Shown here: one piece after another, positions 3,377 to 38,216 of the stretch
Layout of the letters: each line of letters begins with the position of its first letter
Position numbering within the stretch: position 1 is the first letter of the stretch
Assembly: GCA_043810595.1 (NCBI GenBank)
Contig: JBDRNX010000032.1
Coordinates: 38,219-102,218, forward strand
DNA from: an archaeon
Lineage (GTDB): Archaea; Nanobdellota; Nanobdellia; SCGC-AAA011-G17; VGLX01
DNA length: 64,000 bases
Reading direction: 5' to 3'
The notes under the pieces: model-generated
The model's input: only the letters and a program-made list of their open reading frames with translations
What the model was told of the DNA's origin: nothing
The model's database searches: none
Program-made: the position numbers and the translations under genes

Positions 3377-3936
3377 GCTTTCATTATAATCCAGTCTGTC
3401 TGTCCATCAAACATATCTTTCCTCGAGTCTAATACATTTCTGACAGCCTCTTCAAGGGGGATTCTTACAAGTTTTATTCTTTCTGTTGATTCTTGGTTTG
3501 TACTTCCAAGTTCTATATCTCTCGCTATGAACATGTGTTGGGGGCAATCGATAACGCCGGGTACTGGTCTGAACAAGCCAGCATACTCAACTTTTCTTGC
3601 TTTTATGCCCAGTTCTTCAGCAAGTTCTCTGATTGCTGTCTCCATGTGTGAACTGTCACTTTCTTCTATTGCTCCTCCGGGTGCGAATAACCTTTCCACC
3701 CCTCCTGCATACGAGAAAGTTCTTGCAAGGTAAATCTGCTTTTGTTCGTCTATAGGTAGAATTGCAGCCCCCGGTTTTGGCTGTACCCACTCGTAAACTC
3801 CTTCTTTTCTATCAGGTCTTATTACCTTGTCCTTATGAACCTTTAATCCATATCTTCCTGTCCACGTCTCTCTTTCTAGAATAATCCAAGTTCCGTGGTT
3901 CATGGGGAATCCTTTTGTTTCTTTTATCCATTCCAT
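3355..3936 (-). CDS. NUDIX hydrolase (ADP-ribose pyrophosphatase-like)
   Basis: Nudix box GGAIEESDSSHMETAIRELAEELGI. Confidence 0.75.
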   Translation of the reverse strand: MEWIKETKGFPMNHGTWIILERETWTGRYGLKVHKDKVIRPDRKEGVYEWVQPKPGAAILPIDEQKQIYLARTFSYAGGVERLFAPGGAIEESDSSHMETAIRELAEELGIKARKVEYAGLFRPVPGVIDCPQHMFIARDIELGSTNQESTERIKLVRIPLEEAVRNVLDSRKDMFDGQTDWIIMKAYLSLNR

Positions 3937-3957
3937 GGTTTTAGTTATGATAGCACT

Positions 3958-4557
3958 TCAGCAATGTTTTTCGATGTAGTGGTTTACCTTCAGGATCAAG
4001 CTTGTTGTTTGTCCATCAAATATCGTTCCATCCATAACTTTGTTAACTGCTTCTTCTAAGCTTATCTTTACTAACTTTATGTTCTCTCCTGCTTCAAGCT
4101 CTTGTTCTCCGAATGTTAGGCCCTTTGCCATGTACAAGAATTGGTTGCTGTTTACTACTGCTGTTGATGAGTTGAACTGTCCAAGGTAAATCCATTCTTT
4201 TGAGGTTATCCCCAGTTCTTCTTTGAGTTCTCTCTTTGCAGCTTCAAGGTGGGTTTCACCTGGATTTATACCCCCGCTAATCGCCTCCAGACTAATCTTC
4301 CCTATTGCATACTGGAAATCTTTGCCTAGGTAAACATTGCCTTTTTCATCTACAGGTAACACTGAAACTCCCGGGTTTAATGAGACCCATCCGTACACTC
4401 CTTCTTTTCCGTCAGGCCTTATTACCTTATCTTCAAAAACCTTTAGGCCAAACCTGTTTGCGTATTTTTCCGCCCTTTCAACTACGGTCCAGGGACCGTT
4501 TTTTATTAATTCCTGCTTTCCCATTTGTATACCCCCTGTTGCCGCTTTTTCGGGCAT
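3958..4557 (-). CDS. NUDIX hydrolase, tandem paralog of the preceding gene
   Basis: Nudix box GGINPGETHLEAAKRELKEELGI. The N-terminal region is similar to its neighbour (FGLKVFEDKVIRPDGKEGVY versus YGLKVHKDKVIRPDRKEGVY). Confidence 0.75.
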   Translation of the reverse strand: MPEKAATGGIQMGKQELIKNGPWTVVERAEKYANRFGLKVFEDKVIRPDGKEGVYGWVSLNPGVSVLPVDEKGNVYLGKDFQYAIGKISLEAISGGINPGETHLEAAKRELKEELGITSKEWIYLGQFNSSTAVVNSNQFLYMAKGLTFGEQELEAGENIKLVKISLEEAVNKVMDGTIFDGQTTSLILKVNHYIEKHC

Positions 4558-9542: not shown

Positions 9543-9634
9543 TGCCCCCGCTGGGATTTGAACCCAGGCCACAAGCTGTTTGCATATAGATTATTCCGCA
9601 AGCTCGCATACTATCCAGGCTATACTACGAGGGC
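9543..9634 (-). tRNA. tRNA-Arg(GCG) with ~18-nt intron at the canonical 37/38 position
   Basis: Hand-folded. Acceptor GCCCTCG/CGGGGGC. T-arm CTGGG-TTCAAAT-CCCAG. Anticodon stem CGAGC/GCTTG with loop TTGCGG plus insertion AATAATCTATATGCAAAC. A TTTAAAA box lies about 30 nt upstream. Confidence 0.65.
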
Positions 9635-32231: not shown

Positions 32232-35200
32232 TTGAAAAAATCCACTAAAAAGGTGATATACTTTATTTCTATAGCTATTTTGCTCATTTTTTTGGTAGTT
32301 TTAAGCTCTTCGTGTGACGATGATAAAGACGATTATTGTAGGGCCCCGAAGACTATTATGGGCTATTGTCACACAGAATGCGGTTCTCCTGCTGAATGTC
32401 ACCTTGCATACCCTGGTGATATAGGTACTGGTTGCAAGTTCGGGCAAGTATGTAATGATAATTGTCAGTGTGAGTGGGTGGACCAGGATTTAGATGGTTT
32501 TCCTTCCAAGAACATAGGATACATGCATTATACCAAGGATTGTGACGATAAAGACCCCACTGTTTTCCCTGGTGCTCCTGAGATTTGCGACAACAAGGAT
32601 AACGATTGTAATAATAAGGTTGACGTAGATGAGGGCGGTGTTTGTGATAAGCATGTTTATTTCTGTAAGTCTGATAACTTTAATACCCCCCTTGAAAGTT
32701 GTACCGATGGTCTGTGGTGTTCTGCTGAAACCATTAATACTTCAGCTGCTTGCAAATACACCACCACAATTGGGGATATAGGCACTCAGCCAGTTAAGAC
32801 TTTTGTTTGTGACAACTTCTTCCAGGACGGTGACTACGGTTGTTACAAGTTCGTTAACGGAGCGTTTAGTGTTGTGACTAGTTGCGATAACGATAACGAG
32901 CTTGATGAAACTGAAGAATGTGACGGCACTAATCTCGATGGTAAGAGTTGTGAATACTTCGGTTATTTAGGTGGAACTCTGAAGTGTGACAGGTGTACTT
33001 TTGACTTTGATGATTGTACAGGTGTTGTTTGCGATCATGATAATTTCAAGGATCCTGGTGAGGAATGTGACGGCACCGATTTGAACGGTAAGACTTGTCA
33101 GTATTTCGGTTTGCCTGGAAACGTCTTGACTTGTAACGATGTTTGCTTGTTTGATAAGAGGGGCTGTACAGGTGGTGTTGCTGAGTGTGGTAATAACGTT
33201 GTTGAAGCTGGTGAGACTTGTGACGGCTTCAACTTGAACGGTATGACTTGCAGTGATTTCGATTCTTACACAGGGGGCACTTTGGTTTGTAATGCGCCAG
33301 GTACTGTTAAGGAATGTCATTTCAACACAGCCAGTTGTACTCCTGATAATCCAGGCATCTGTGGTAATAATCAGATAAATGATGGTGAGGAGTGTGACGG
33401 CATGAATCTTGATGGTAAGAGCTGTACAGACTTTGATAATTTCATCAGCGGTTCTTTGAGTTGTTATCCTCAGGGTAACGCTCTTGCTTGTCTACTTGAT
33501 ACAAGTCAGTGTGTCGCTCCTCAGCCCGTCTGCGGTAACGCAATAGTGGAGTCTGGTGAGGAGTGTGACGGTTCAAATCTGAACGGTCAGTCTTGTACCT
33601 CTATGGGCTTTGCTGGTGGTACTTTGTTGTGTGAGGTTGATTGCAGCTATGATTACAGCAGCTGTGAGAGCGTATCTTGTGATAACGATAACGCTGCCGA
33701 GCCTGGCGAGGCTTGTGACGGTACGGATCTCGATGGCAGGATTTGTCAGTTCTTCGGCTTTACTGGCGGAACTCTTGAGTGCAGTAATAATTGTGAGTTT
33801 AATTTCACTAAATGTAATAATTATGTATGTGATAATGATGGGGTTGCTGAGCCTGGCGAGGTTTGTGACGGTGATGATTTGAGGGATTGGACTTGCAATG
33901 ACTTGGACATGTTCACGGGAGGCCTGTTGCAATGTACTGATCTGTGTATGTTTGACAGGAGTGAGTGCAGTTTGATTTGTGATAACAATAACGTCGCTGA
34001 ATCTGGTGAGGAGTGTGACGGCAGTGACTTGAGAGGCAAGGACTGCAGTAACTTCGGAAGGTTCGGCGGATTCCTTCTTTGTAGCTTGTCATGTAAGTAT
34101 GACCTGGGCAGTTGCGGTCCTTCCTGTTTGGAGGATTGGGATTGTACTGCTTGGACGAACTGTTCCAAGATGTCCGATAACACAACTAGGGTTTGTACAG
34201 ACTTAACTGGTTGTGGTACTGAATATTCGAAGCCTAACGAGTTGAAGCCTTGTGACCCCGCAGTATGTGTAGATGATGATAACGATGGTTATTGTGCTTG
34301 CTTCGGTGATGCTGTTGGTTGCGATTGTGATGATACCCTTGCTGCGATACATCCTGACGCTAATGAGCTTTGCAACGGTGAGGATGATAATTGTGATGCC
34401 ACGATTGATGAGGGATGCCCTTGCGAGTTTAACACCACACGTATTTGCGGTGTTGATGAGGGTTTGTGCAGGGAAGGCATCCAGCGCTGCTTGAACGGCT
34501 TCTGGAGTTTCTGTAGCAGTAACTACATAGGTCCAAGACCGGAAGTTTGTGATAACGGTTTGGATGAGGATTGTGATGGTTATCCTGATGATGGTTGTAT
34601 CTGTGAGAATAATGCCACGCAGGAATGCGGCACAGATGTTGGTGAGTGTGAGAAGGGTACTCAGATTTGTTTCGGAGGTAACTGGACTGCTTGTTCAGGT
34701 GCCAAGACTGAAACTGCTGAGGTTTGCTCAGGTAAGAAGGATGAGGACTGTGATACTTTAATAGATTGTGATGATGATTCTTGCTTGATCAGCTCGGTTT
34801 GTGAAGATGGCGGTCCGGGTGGGCCAACTCCAACCTGCTTTGATAAGACTAAGAACCAGGGTGAGGAGGGCGTTGATTGTGGAGGTCCGTGCCCTGCTTG
34901 TCAGGAACTTTGTGGTTATGGCGAGATAACTTCCGAATGTTTGTGCGAAAGCGTTAAGAGAACTTCGGGTTACTGTTGCGGCGGCAATAGGTATCAGATT
35001 AATTCTTGCACATCTGGTTGTACAGATTCTGATGGGGATACTTTGTGTGATGAGGATGAGATACGTGACGGTACAGACCCGAACAATCCCGATACTGATG
35101 GTGATGGAATTAACGATAATGAGGACAGCTGGCCTCGCTGCAACCAGGACGGGAAGTGTGACTCTTCAAAAGATTACCCTGAAGACGCTGATAACTGTCC

Positions 35201-35615
35201 GGACGATTGTGGAGGTAAGAAAAAAGGTGGTGGCCTTGGCCTGTTGTGGTGGATTATTATAATACTTCTAATCTTGATAGTGTGTGCTATTACCGCTTAC
35301 TTTTTGATAAAGAAGGATATAATCAAGTTGAAGAAGAAAAAGAAGGAAGAGCCCAAGGTTGTTTTGGGTAAGCCTATGATGAAGTTCGGTGCCGGTACCA
35401 TTCAGCCGATTACCACTAAGAAGCCGGTGAGGGATGTTTCAAAGCTTGTTTCTTACATTGGGGGTTCTATAAAGAAGGGTGAGTCAAGGTTGAAGTTGAG
35501 GGAGTCTGCTTTGAAGGCCGGCTGGGGTAACGAGGAGATTAACAAGGCTTTCGAAAGCATAGATAAGGGTAGGAAGCAGTCCAACAAGAAGTTCTTCAGC
35601 CTGTTCAAGAAATAA
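32232..35615 (+). CDS. Giant (1127 aa) cysteine-rich repeat surface protein with C-terminal TM anchor and basic cytoplasmic tail
   Basis: Signal peptide. Eight ~45-aa repeats of form C(G/D)N..(E/P)GEECDG.(N/D)L.G..C..FG...G(T)L.C...C.FD...C, reminiscent of Myxococcus-type Cys-rich repeats. TM helix LGLLWWIIIILLILIVCAITAYFLI near the C-terminus. Lys-rich tail. Confidence 0.6.
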   Translation: MKKSTKKVIYFISIAILLIFLVVLSSSCDDDKDDYCRAPKTIMGYCHTECGSPAECHLAYPGDIGTGCKFGQVCNDNCQCEWVDQDLDGFPSKNIGYMHYTKDCDDKDPTVFPGAPEICDNKDNDCNNKVDVDEGGVCDKHVYFCKSDNFNTPLESCTDGLWCSAETINTSAACKYTTTIGDIGTQPVKTFVCDNFFQDGDYGCYKFVNGAFSVVTSCDNDNELDETEECDGTNLDGKSCEYFGYLGGTLKCDRCTFDFDDCTGVVCDHDNFKDPGEECDGTDLNGKTCQYFGLPGNVLTCNDVCLFDKRGCTGGVAECGNNVVEAGETCDGFNLNGMTCSDFDSYTGGTLVCNAPGTVKECHFNTASCTPDNPGICGNNQINDGEECDGMNLDGKSCTDFDNFISGSLSCYPQGNALACLLDTSQCVAPQPVCGNAIVESGEECDGSNLNGQSCTSMGFAGGTLLCEVDCSYDYSSCESVSCDNDNAAEPGEACDGTDLDGRICQFFGFTGGTLECSNNCEFNFTKCNNYVCDNDGVAEPGEVCDGDDLRDWTCNDLDMFTGGLLQCTDLCMFDRSECSLICDNNNVAESGEECDGSDLRGKDCSNFGRFGGFLLCSLSCKYDLGSCGPSCLEDWDCTAWTNCSKMSDNTTRVCTDLTGCGTEYSKPNELKPCDPAVCVDDDNDGYCACFGDAVGCDCDDTLAAIHPDANELCNGEDDNCDATIDEGCPCEFNTTRICGVDEGLCREGIQRCLNGFWSFCSSNYIGPRPEVCDNGLDEDCDGYPDDGCICENNATQECGTDVGECEKGTQICFGGNWTACSGAKTETAEVCSGKKDEDCDTLIDCDDDSCLISSVCEDGGPGGPTPTCFDKTKNQGEEGVDCGGPCPACQELCGYGEITSECLCESVKRTSGYCCGGNRYQINSCTSGCTDSDGDTLCDEDEIRDGTDPNNPDTDGDGINDNEDSWPRCNQDGKCDSSKDYPEDADNCPDDCGGKKKGGGLGLLWWIIIILLILIVCAITAYFLIKKDIIKLKKKKKEEPKVVLGKPMMKFGAGTIQPITTKKPVRDVSKLVSYIGGSIKKGESRLKLRESALKAGWGNEEINKAFESIDKGRKQSNKKFFSLFKK
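32877..34125 (+). repeat. Eight tandem ~135-nt coding repeats (Cys-rich modules) inside the 1127-aa gene
   Basis: Recurrent GEECDG / GETCDG / GEACDG / GEVCDG cores at ~45-aa spacing. Confidence 0.6.
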
Positions 35616-37367: not shown

Positions 37368-38000
37368 ATGGAGATAAATCCTGAAATAGCTGAGCTTTGT
37401 GGCATCATTTTAGGAGATGGTCACTTACATAATACTGAGAACAGGATTACCATAACTGGTTCTGTAGATGACTTACATTACTACAAAGGATATGTCATAC
37501 CTTTATTTCAGAAAAACTTTGGAGAAACTCCAAAGTTAGTGCCAGTCAAAGATAAAAATGCGTGGAAATTAGTATTACAAAATAAGGTGGTTTTTATGTT
37601 TTTTATTAATGAACTGGGTTTAGTGAGAGGTAGGAAGACAAATATAAAAATTCCGACAAGGATATCCTGCTCTAGAGAACTGCTAATCCCTTTCATGAGA
37701 GGGTTATTTGATACGGATGGTTACCTAAAATTTGCTAAACAAAACAGAGATGTTAATTATTACCCTCGAATGAGGCTTACTTTGTATAAAAATGAACTTT
37801 CGCTTAGTCTGTCTAAAGTTTTTAAAAAGTTAAATTTTAACTTTAATAAATGTGTAGATAGAAGATATAACACAATATGCTATGAAATCTCTGGGTCTAT
37901 GATGTTAAATAGGTGGATGGAAATGATAGGTACTTCTAACCCTAAACACCTTGTCAAATACTTTCTTTGGAAAAGACAAGGTTACGTATCTATTATATAA
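37368..38000 (+). CDS. LAGLIDADG homing endonuclease, two-motif monomeric type, free-standing
   Basis: Motif 1 LCGIILGDGHL and motif 2 FMRGLFDTDGYL. Own AT-rich upstream region with TTTATAAAA. Confidence 0.7.
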   Translation: MEINPEIAELCGIILGDGHLHNTENRITITGSVDDLHYYKGYVIPLFQKNFGETPKLVPVKDKNAWKLVLQNKVVFMFFINELGLVRGRKTNIKIPTRISCSRELLIPFMRGLFDTDGYLKFAKQNRDVNYYPRMRLTLYKNELSLSLSKVFKKLNFNFNKCVDRRYNTICYEISGSMMLNRWMEMIGTSNPKHLVKYFLWKRQGYVSII

Positions 38001-38052
38001 AAAGAAATGTTTATAAACAAATTTTATTGCTAATTCTCAAGGATAGCCCTAT

Positions 38053-38168
38053 AGCCCCGTAGAAGAGAAAAAACTCTGCGGAATGTAGCGGCCAAATTAG
38101 GTCAAAACTAAGGCGATTCATTCCGCCCTTTGGAGGCGGAGACGGAGGTTCAAATCCTCCCGGGGCTA
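38053..38168 (+). tRNA. tRNA gene with a ~44-nt insertion. Identity uncertain; possibly Gln(UUG) with an intron between the D-arm and the anticodon stem.
   Basis: Hand-folded. Acceptor AGCCCCG/CGGGGCT. T-arm GGAGG-TTCAAAT-CCTCC. Candidate anticodon arm CCGCC-CTTTGGA-GGCGG. 8-bp hairpin GCGGAATG/CATTCCGC. Tandem ATAGCCC duplication at the 5' end. Confidence 0.45.
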
Positions 38169-38216
38169 TCCTTTCTTTTCACAATCTTTATATATTTATT
38201 CTCCTTACAATTGTTT

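Follow-up and report, generated by a model that had tools for sequence, protein, structure and literature searches.

A free-standing LAGLIDADG endonuclease gene beside a two-intron tRNA-Gln gene in a DPANN archaeon, and the linkage of its family to tRNA genes

We analyzed a stretch of 64,000 nucleotides (nt), hereafter the window, from a DPANN (Woesearchaeota-like) archaeon (contig JBDRNX010000032.1). It contains a gene for a LAGLIDADG endonuclease followed, on the same strand, by a tRNA-Gln(UUG) gene whose D arm appears to be interrupted by two introns, and we compared this pair with related loci of other archaea. The tRNA gene begins 52 nt past the endonuclease stop codon and is 116 nt long, about 43 nt above a normal tRNA. 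A preliminary description made from the sequence had already noticed a 210-aa open reading frame (ORF) with two LAGLIDADG motifs, located outside any rRNA intron or intein, as well as an intron-bearing tRNA-like gene with an acceptor stem and a T arm about 50 nt downstream. All these elements were confirmed by our analysis (Table 1).

The assignment of the 210-aa protein to the LAGLIDADG endonucleases, also put forward in that description, is borne out by sequence and structure comparisons. In an alignment of 27 homologs (30-64% identity), residues G16, D17 and G18 of motif 1 and G112, L113, D115, T116 and D117 of motif 2 are invariant, including the acidic metal-binding residue that closes each motif (D17 and D117). 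A search of the PDB by sequence matched the archaeal enzyme 2dch (E 2.2e-5). We found 119 homologs in a large protein database, mostly in metagenome-assembled genomes of Woesearchaeota and Nanoarchaeota; nearly all carry a precomputed match to the Pfam family LAGLIDADG_3 (PF14528), and two are labelled "WhiA" by one source. The AlphaFold (AF2) model (pLDDT 95.8, pTM 0.92) consists of two pseudo-symmetric alpha-beta-beta-alpha-beta-beta-alpha domains packed via the motif helices, with no added DNA-binding domain. Its top Foldseek match is I-Tsp061I (E 2e-12, TM 0.74-0.76), and further matches include intein endonucleases, many I-DmoI chains and I-AniI, with WhiA lower in the ranking. Judging from this model and from the alignment, it is highly probable that the protein adopts the LAGLIDADG fold with an intact active site. 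As far as can be read from the sequence, the gene is intact and not decaying, and its product would be a nuclease. It lies neither in an intron nor in an intein, the usual archaeal contexts of such genes, and no copy of a tRNA exon was found upstream of the ORF within the window; the gene is thus free-standing here. It is the single member of its family in the window and has a guanine-plus-cytosine (GC) content of 32.1%, versus 41.3% for the whole window.

The downstream tRNA gene has a 7-bp acceptor stem (AGCCCCG 38053-59 / CGGGGCT 38161-67), an anticodon arm CCGCC-CUUUGGA-GGCGG (38123-39) with the glutamine anticodon UUG at 38130-38132, a 4-nt variable loop and a T arm GGAGG-UUCAAAU-CCUCC (38144-60). 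Removal of the two proposed introns would leave a 73-nt tRNA-Gln, AGCCCCG-UA-GUGU-AGCGGCCAA-UCAU-U-CCGCC-CUUUGGA-GGCGG-AGAC-GGAGG-UUCAAAU-CCUCC-CGGGGCU-A. Once spliced in silico, the sequence folds into a cloverleaf with a 7-bp acceptor stem, the residues A14, G18, G19 and A21, a 7-nt anticodon loop with U33, and a T loop of the form TTCRAAT. The verdict of a tRNA finder, which the preliminary description had suggested as a check, depends on the form of the gene submitted. On the unspliced gene, ARAGORN found no tRNA with default settings and, with the option -i, miscalled a tRNA-Ala(agc) with a 28-nt intron; on the sequence minus 38063-83 and 38096-117, it called tRNA-Gln(ttg). The Rfam tRNA model (RF00005) gave a partial match of 22.7 bits on the unspliced gene, the gathering score being 29.

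Table 1. Features of the endonuclease/tRNA-Gln locus, with positions in the window
Feature	Position	Strand	Basis
LAGLIDADG endonuclease gene, 210 aa, monomeric two-domain type	37368..38000	+	ORF list, Pfam, PDB, AF2, Foldseek, homologs
LAGLIDADG motif 1, LCGIILGDGHL, residues 10-20; putative catalytic Asp17 = 37416-37418	37395..37427	+	27-sequence alignment
LAGLIDADG motif 2, FMRGLFDTDGYL, residues 109-120; putative catalytic Asp117 = 37716-37718	37692..37727	+	27-sequence alignment
Putative TATA-box-like element TTTATAAA; pre-tRNA would start near 38040	38010..38017	+	sequence reading
Leader element AAGGATAGCCCT, complementary to tRNA 3' acceptor strand and trailer (38162-38173)	38039..38050	+	fold, shuffles, duplex z
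tRNA-Gln(UUG) gene	38053-38168	+	sequence, ARAGORN after intron removal, orthologs
tRNA-Gln exon 1, positions 1-10, AGCCCCG-TA-G	38053..38062	+	exon shared with 23 related genes
Intron 1, 21 nt, position 10/11, hBH type	38063..38083	+	site shared by 23 tRNA-Gln genes, covariation
tRNA-Gln exon 2, positions 11-21, UGU-AGCGGCCAA, holding A14, G18, G19, A21	38084..38095	+	orthologs
Intron 2, 22 nt, position 21/22, relaxed bulge-helix-bulge	38096..38117	+	orthologs, ARAGORN
tRNA-Gln exon 3, positions 22-73, D-stem 3' strand to discriminator A (A38168)	38118..38168	+	sequence, Rfam, ARAGORN
3' partner of leader helix, GGGGCTATCCTT (38162-73), into T-rich TTTCTTTT (38172-79)	38162..38179	+	sequence, fold

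To locate the introns, we deleted in turn every possible segment, or pair of segments, lying between the acceptor and anticodon stems and ranked the outcomes. All the best-scoring solutions remove two segments, and no single deletion is found among the top 41. Junctions were placed with the bulge-helix-bulge (BHB) rule, according to which each 3-nt bulge is cut between its second and third nucleotides; we derived this rule from the canonical 37/38 case, and the motif description in PMC4090602 is consistent with it. Intron 1 displays a 4-bp central helix (CCGU 38057-60 / GCGG 38078-81), the bulges AG↓A (38061-63) and AA↓U (38082-84), the arrow marking the cut, and an inner helix AGAG 38064-67 / CUCU 38074-77. 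Intron 2 displays the bulges AA↓A and AU↓U and an inner helix UUAG 38097-100 / CUAA 38108-11; the same motif is seen at the related locus L029. Neither intron follows the strict hBHBh' architecture, both having a strong inner helix and an outer helix of 0-1 bp. The relaxed hBH type of motif has been described together with its processing by a broad-specificity splicing endonuclease (PMC4090602), and from their sequences both introns must be substrates that would require such an archaeal enzyme for removal.

The related loci, designated by L-numbers, come from a scan of one genome per species, which gave 80 loci out of 311 relatives in Woesearchaeota, Nanoarchaeota, Pacearchaeota, Aenigmatarchaeota, Altiarchaeota, Iainarchaeota and Micrarchaeota. 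Their tRNAs were identified with ARAGORN for intronless genes, by reading the anticodon loop and from acceptor classes. An intron is present at the identical 10/11 site in 23 tRNA-Gln genes, in which exon 1 is likewise kept. We aligned the gap-free exon/intron junction parts of these genes and found 98.8% of the cells of the intron 1 helices paired, with compensatory changes in 5/7 pairs, versus 29-43% in controls where the partner was slid by 1-3 columns. The central helix is fully paired in 22 of the 23 genes, with the variants CCGU/GCGG, CUGU/ACAG and CCAU/AUGG; the inner helices vary freely. The tRNA-Gln of L004, whose endonuclease is 60% identical to that of the window, has intron 1 only and reads ...TAG[23 nt]TGTAGTGGCCAATCATT..., and that of L027 is devoid of introns, reads AGCCCTGTAGTGTAGCGGCCAATCATT..., reaches 57.8 bits on the Rfam tRNA model and is identical to the spliced exons of the window gene over positions 8-26. 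In both, the D arm is G-TGT-AGYGGCCAA-TCAT-T, as predicted by the BHB cleavage rule. Exon 2 of the window matches TGTAGYGGYCAA in relatives and is identical to the L027 tRNA, and removal of intron 2 restores GGCCAA-TCATT exactly as in the orthologs without this intron (L004, L001b and L027). The 21/22 site is also occupied by an intron in L029 and L032. With this comparison at hand, there is little doubt that the gene would encode a tRNA-Gln with introns at 10/11 and 21/22. An alternative junction for intron 2 (38097-38118, A22), which gives a neater D stem, was rejected in favor of GGCCAA↓TCATT, on which the BHB rule and the orthologs agree. An automated removal of BHB introns followed by ARAGORN was also tried on the other loci and dropped, as it produced spurious tRNA-Pyl and tRNA-Leu solutions.

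The region preceding the tRNA holds a further element, complementary to the 3' end of the tRNA and its trailer. Archaeal transcription usually starts about 25-30 nt downstream of the TATA box; given the position of the TATA-like box, this leader element would thus be transcribed. The T-rich stretch at 38172-79 is a candidate terminator, a role that is likely from its sequence. The tandem duplication abutting the 5' end of the tRNA in the preliminary description does exist (ATAGCCCT/ATAGCCCC, 38043-58), but its first copy belongs to the leader element. In the minimum-free-energy (MFE) fold, the 12-bp helix between the leader and the 3' end closes the structure (fold z -4.5; duplex z -5.05), and one shuffled leader out of 500 was as good as the native one. 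The central helix of intron 1 occupies tRNA positions 5-8 and hence competes with the acceptor stem. We quantified this competition by constrained folding, as the free-energy difference ddG between the conformer with the BHB of intron 1 and the acceptor conformer. For the window gene, ddG is +9.4 kcal/mol with mature ends and -2.6 kcal/mol with leader and trailer. For the 23 intron-bearing genes, its average falls from +6.9 kcal/mol for the mature ends to -2.0 kcal/mol when the native 25-nt leader is included; a shuffled leader leaves it at +4.0 kcal/mol. Compared with shuffled leaders, the native one brings it down by more than 2 kcal/mol in 20/23 genes. Some leaders pair with the acceptor 3' strand (window, L001, L004, L017 and L030) and others with the 3' half of the T arm (L016, L018, L020 and L023). 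The leader/3'-end duplex z has a mean of -3.1 for intron-bearing genes versus -0.2 for 11 intronless tRNA-Gln genes of the same loci (p = 2.6e-5).

We propose that the leader could act as a decoy, which would pair with the 3' acceptor strand and the trailer and thereby free positions 5-8 for the BHB of intron 1. On the basis of these folding models, we lean slightly towards the view that the element aids the presentation of the BHB. The element is also present where the tRNA diverges from the endonuclease gene and is absent at L027, where an intronless tRNA adjoins the endonuclease; the leader thus goes with the intron and not with the endonuclease. The repeat contained in it consequently no longer qualifies as the remnant of an insertion site that the preliminary description had seen there, since it tracks the 10/11 intron. 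For the same reason, we consider it less likely that the leader copy would be the relic of a convergent tRNA beside the endonuclease. Inspection by hand revealed no BHB formed by the leader and the trailer on the 3' side. L027 (3001-3770) is the sole member with an intronless tRNA-Gln and no leader complementarity among the loci of the window type.

We then looked at the neighborhood of the endonuclease gene in the related loci. In an automated count that accepted a tRNA(-like) gene up to 150 nt from the 3' end or up to 300 nt from the 5' end of the endonuclease gene, such a gene was found at either end in 69 of 79 non-redundant loci (87%), at the 3' end in 62/79 and at the 5' end in 11/79. 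The background density of tRNA genes is 0.023 per 450-nt window, i.e. about 2% would be expected. The linkage between endonuclease and tRNA is clearly non-random. A tRNA-Gln lies immediately downstream in all the homologs examined at 64%, 60% and 48% identity, and the Gln clade, whose members share at least 38% identity with the window protein, is found beside a tRNA-Gln without exception, in three arrangements: co-directional, as in the window; convergent, with an intronless tRNA-Gln(CUG) overlapping a 3' extension of the ORF (L013, L015, L019 and L035); and divergent (L014, L021, L022 and L025). More distant clades adjoin tRNA-His, tRNA-Ser(GCU), initiator tRNA, tRNA-Arg(UCG), tRNA-Thr(GGU) and others, and the leaves of a neighbor-joining tree of the endonucleases group by the identity of the adjacent tRNA. 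Many of these tRNAs carry several introns, and the endonuclease gene is intact in nearly all of the 80 loci. In the distant clades, the stop codon of the ORF is often the UAG of the tRNA D arm. With a stop codon inside the tRNA, 5'-end processing of the latter would strip the stop codon from the mRNA. In the literature that we could cover, which is incomplete, no published account of a linkage between LAGLIDADG and tRNA genes in DPANN archaea came to light, and this family-wide linkage looks new.

Several loci deserve a separate description. In many relatives, the ORF runs into the tRNA and ends at the D-arm TAG or within the first intron (L030 3698-3717, L033 3683-3690, and the ORF 3' ends of L043, L061, L064, L066, L068 and L076). 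At L001, a single endonuclease gene is followed by a tandem of tRNA-Gln(CUG) and tRNA-Gln(UUG) (3721-3834 and 3919-4015), both with the 10/11 intron. At L018, the endonuclease gene stands between an intronless tRNA-Gln(CUG) (2758-2830) and an intron-bearing tRNA-Gln(UUG) (3713-3821); the latter is followed by a run of N (~3824-3925) and then by a repeat of the tRNA 3' end (ATCTGCCCGGGGCTATT), which suggests masking or scaffolding of the sequence and not a biological feature. At L058 (archaeon GW2011_AR20, CP010426.1, complete genome; 2821-3800) and L073 (2819-3790), the ORF lies between two copies of exon 1 of a tRNA-Ser(GCU). The upstream copy, which does not differ between the two species, has a TATA-like box; the downstream one falls within the 3' end of the ORF, with a 31-nt BHB intron at 29/30 after it. 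A tRNA-Ser results when exon 2 is joined to one copy or the other, through the same BHB half-site in both cases. Use of the upstream copy would place the endonuclease within an 847-nt tRNA intron. Finally, the endonuclease gene of L047 is flanked by a 21-nt direct repeat, ATAGCGGGAAGAGGATTTGAA (2135-2155 and 2913-2933), which corresponds, in reverse complement, to the 3' end of an initiator-type tRNA and resembles an insertion footprint.

Altogether, we propose that the window probably harbors a long-resident, tRNA-locus-specific, free-standing homing endonuclease beside a functional two-intron tRNA-Gln(UUG). Recognition sites in or at the edge of tRNA genes fit best with the existence of one clade per tRNA species, the use of any orientation, the overlap between ORF and tRNA, and the repeats of tRNA ends that flank some of the genes. 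The window enzyme could thus recognize a site within the tRNA-Gln locus or at its border, and repair of the double-strand break would copy the endonuclease gene together with the neighboring tRNA allele, the members of the family using conserved tRNA genes as landmarks. That the enzyme would indeed be an active homing endonuclease targeting the tRNA-Gln locus is a proposal to which we give just short of an even chance. A broader hypothesis, possible but on the unlikely side, would be that homing endonucleases with one tRNA target each form a large family in DPANN archaea, spreading as endonuclease-plus-tRNA cassettes and, in some lineages, residing inside giant tRNA introns (L058 and L073), the decoy role of the leader making spliceable those introns that compete with the acceptor stem.

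Several observations weigh against the proposal of a homing endonuclease or against parts of it. The nuclease activity of the window enzyme is, like its cleavage site, target, mobility and homing, an inference, and so is the part that the leader would play in vivo. The score of the window protein on PF14528 (E 4e-4, 21.0 bits) is below the curated cut-off of 22.5, the central helix of intron 2 (GGCC 38090-93 / GGCG 38112-15) has 3/4 pairs, and the analysis of the leader rests on thermodynamic models and on mutually related sequences. The endonuclease stands beside intronless tRNAs in the His, Arg, Thr and convergent Gln clades and at L027. As a consequence, introns are no general immunity device, L027 being a direct counter-example, and the idea that an intron shields the tRNA gene from its own endonuclease was abandoned as a general rule. 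Near the endonuclease/tRNA-Gln pair, 10 loci have the gene for ribosomal protein S15 and 11 have a member of a ~260-aa family, and a neighborhood with a Bud32 kinase, S15 and a RecJ-like protein is conserved in several relatives. The GC content of the endonuclease gene tracks that of the host with a constant offset of about -4.6 points on average, and in close pairs the endonuclease is about as conserved as S15 (e.g. 78.5% versus 81.5%). An S15-based search of metagenome contigs turned up no version of this locus without the endonuclease gene; it returned 18 loci with no endonuclease gene or tRNA near S15, which are uninformative on empty alleles. In viral contigs, we found no close relatives and only distant, partial LAGLIDADG matches. 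The conserved neighborhood, the host-adjusted GC content and the S15-like conservation fit a long vertical residence, and possibly domestication, as well as homing.

On the other hand, the similarity between endonucleases correlates weakly with that of the flanking genes (rho 0.23-0.26), and some pairs are discordant, with 70% for the endonuclease versus 54% for the flanking gene between L020 and L029, and 44% versus 65% between the window and L027. The S15 of L027 is nearest to those of the window and L004 (65%), and its endonuclease is nearest to that of L029 (64%). This weak correlation and these discordant pairs argue against strict vertical descent. The low GC content of the ORF was also considered as a sign of recent transfer and discarded, since the ORF is below its flanks in 73 of 81 loci, which makes the offset a trait of the family.

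A serious rival is that the protein has been domesticated and serves the host at tRNA loci, which we regard as rather improbable. It might bind DNA in a locus-specific manner or regulate the adjacent tRNA gene, start gene conversion among copies of tRNA-Gln, or cut elements that integrate into tRNA genes. The conserved neighborhood and long residence, the adjustment of GC to each host, a conservation comparable to that of S15 in close pairs and the intactness of the gene in nearly all loci all speak for such a role, and so does the presence among the structural neighbors of WhiA, which shares the LAGLIDADG fold. WhiA, however, no longer has the catalytic residues and bears an additional helix-turn-helix domain at its C terminus, whereas the 210-aa protein shows neither change: both catalytic Asp are invariant and no DNA-binding domain has been added. 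Moreover, a host factor acting in trans needs no paralog fused to each target tRNA in any orientation, the direct repeats of tRNA ends flanking the genes of L058, L073 and L047 resemble insertion footprints, and the similarities of endonuclease and flanking genes are discordant in several pairs. Because we found no allele without the endonuclease gene, domestication nevertheless remains a serious rival. One could also wonder whether the protein acts as an RNA cofactor that binds the neighboring pre-tRNA and helps it to fold for BHB splicing, as some LAGLIDADG proteins of group I introns act as maturases. The conflict between the BHB of intron 1 and the acceptor stem, the several introns of many adjacent tRNAs and the structural match to I-AniI, a bifunctional endonuclease/maturase, would agree with it. 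What makes this role very unlikely in our view is that the tRNAs adjoining whole clades (His, Arg, Thr and convergent Gln), as well as that of L027, are intronless; besides, the leader, which tracks the intron and not the protein, already accounts for the presentation of the BHB, and the catalytic residues have been kept.

Inherited gene order without any functional link could make neighbors of the endonuclease and the tRNA, as the conserved Bud32 kinase, S15 and RecJ-like neighborhood might suggest. It is hardly credible given that a tRNA is at the edge of the gene far above expectation in several DPANN phyla, that adjacency persists through the three arrangements of the Gln clade, that the endonuclease clades sort by tRNA identity and that the ORFs often end within the tRNA. 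The preliminary description offered another picture, namely a degenerating endonuclease at the relic of its insertion site, next to a tRNA with one intron of ~44 nt at 26/27 closed by a perfect 8-bp hairpin. ARAGORN does accept a tRNA-Gln with 38079-38122 deleted, so that comparative evidence was needed to choose. The hairpin, GCGGAATG (38078-85) pairing with CATTCCGC (38119-26), is real and present in the MFE fold, but it is not conserved, L004 having GCGGTA facing TTTTGG, and it brings together the anticodon stem with the end of intron 1 and with two genuine D-stem pairs. Such a single intron would turn the D loop into AGAAAAAA, devoid of G18 and G19, leave a mismatched D stem and remove the canonical TGTAGCGGCCAA-TCAT D arm found in intron-poor orthologs, and no BHB is found at its junctions. 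The extra ~43 nt are thus there, yet as two insertions within the D arm instead of one block between the D and anticodon arms, and what had been taken for the D arm (GAAG-AGAAAAAA-CTCT) corresponds for the most part to the inner hairpin of intron 1. As for degeneration, it is contradicted by an intact ORF whose catalytic Asp residues are invariant among the 27 homologs and which is about as conserved as S15. We give this picture next to no credit, the comparative data pointing to two BHB introns.

A parallel can be drawn with several known systems. I-Tsp061I and I-DmoI resemble the window protein in fold, size, monomeric state, two motifs each closed by an acidic residue and archaeal host; they are, however, encoded within BHB introns of rRNA genes, whereas the window gene is outside introns and beside a tRNA, and the identity is about 20%. 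The nearest functional precedent is SegB, which is encoded in the tRNA gene cluster of T4-like phages and is thought to spread tRNA genes by co-conversion: here also, a free-standing endonuclease gene is found among or next to tRNA genes. SegB is in contrast a GIY-YIG enzyme of a phage genome, whereas the present family is of the LAGLIDADG type, resides in archaeal chromosomes, has one clade per tRNA and frequently overlaps the tRNA. SegB and tRNA are both named in the abstract of PMC13096335. The tRNA-Gln of the window belongs to the already known multi-intron archaeal tRNA genes with relaxed BHB motifs (PMC4090602). As in Thermoproteales, Nanoarchaeota and ARMAN, the introns are small and non-canonical, of the relaxed hBH/HBh' type and several per gene. 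That review, the one source used for this comparison, lists the positions 20/21, 22/23, 25/26, 29/30, 30/31, 45/46, 53/54, 56/57, 59/60 and 3/4, among which 10/11 does not figure; other differences are the DPANN host and a leader that appears to assist BHB formation. In the split and permuted tRNAs of Nanoarchaeum equitans and Cyanidioschyzon merolae, pairing between leader and trailer also builds the substrate of the splicing endonuclease (PMC4090602). There, the pairing forms the BHB itself, whereas here the leader would pair with the tRNA 3' end and free positions 5-8, the window tRNA-Gln being neither split nor permuted.

Another comparison concerns collaborative homing, in which a free-standing endonuclease acts with an ORF-less intron that interrupts its target, the known cases being group I introns of phages. 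The window locus is similar in that the endonuclease gene lies outside the small, ORF-less intron of a neighboring gene. It differs in that, at L027 and in several clades, the endonuclease is beside intronless tRNAs.

These loci touch on two open questions, namely how non-canonical tRNA introns are gained and spread, and why tRNA genes are so frequently disrupted in archaea with small genomes. If the enzymes cut tRNA loci, homing endonucleases would be linked to the evolution of tRNA genes, and the family would offer new endonucleases with long, conserved natural targets. If true, the spread of endonuclease-plus-tRNA cassettes would be the first mobility mechanism at the DNA level tied to archaeal tRNA genes and BHB introns. 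The leader, for its part, suggests a simple RNA-folding solution where a splicing motif conflicts with the tRNA fold. Since standard finders miss or miscall an essential tRNA-Gln gene, the tRNA sets of DPANN archaea are likely to be under-annotated.

Two other regions of the window were noted. On the - strand, a tRNA-Arg(GCG) at 9543-9634, missed by ARAGORN with default settings, was read by hand; it has an acceptor stem GCCCTCG/CGGGGGC, an anticodon stem CGAGC/GCTTG and an intron of ~18 nt at the canonical 37/38 position. Just upstream of the Bud32-like kinase, the window encodes on the + strand (32232-35615) a cysteine-rich, repetitive protein of 1127 aa with a C-terminal membrane anchor. 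At L001, the gene in the corresponding position upstream of the kinase matches the Pfam family Cu-binding_MopE, the correspondence noted between the two being one of position.

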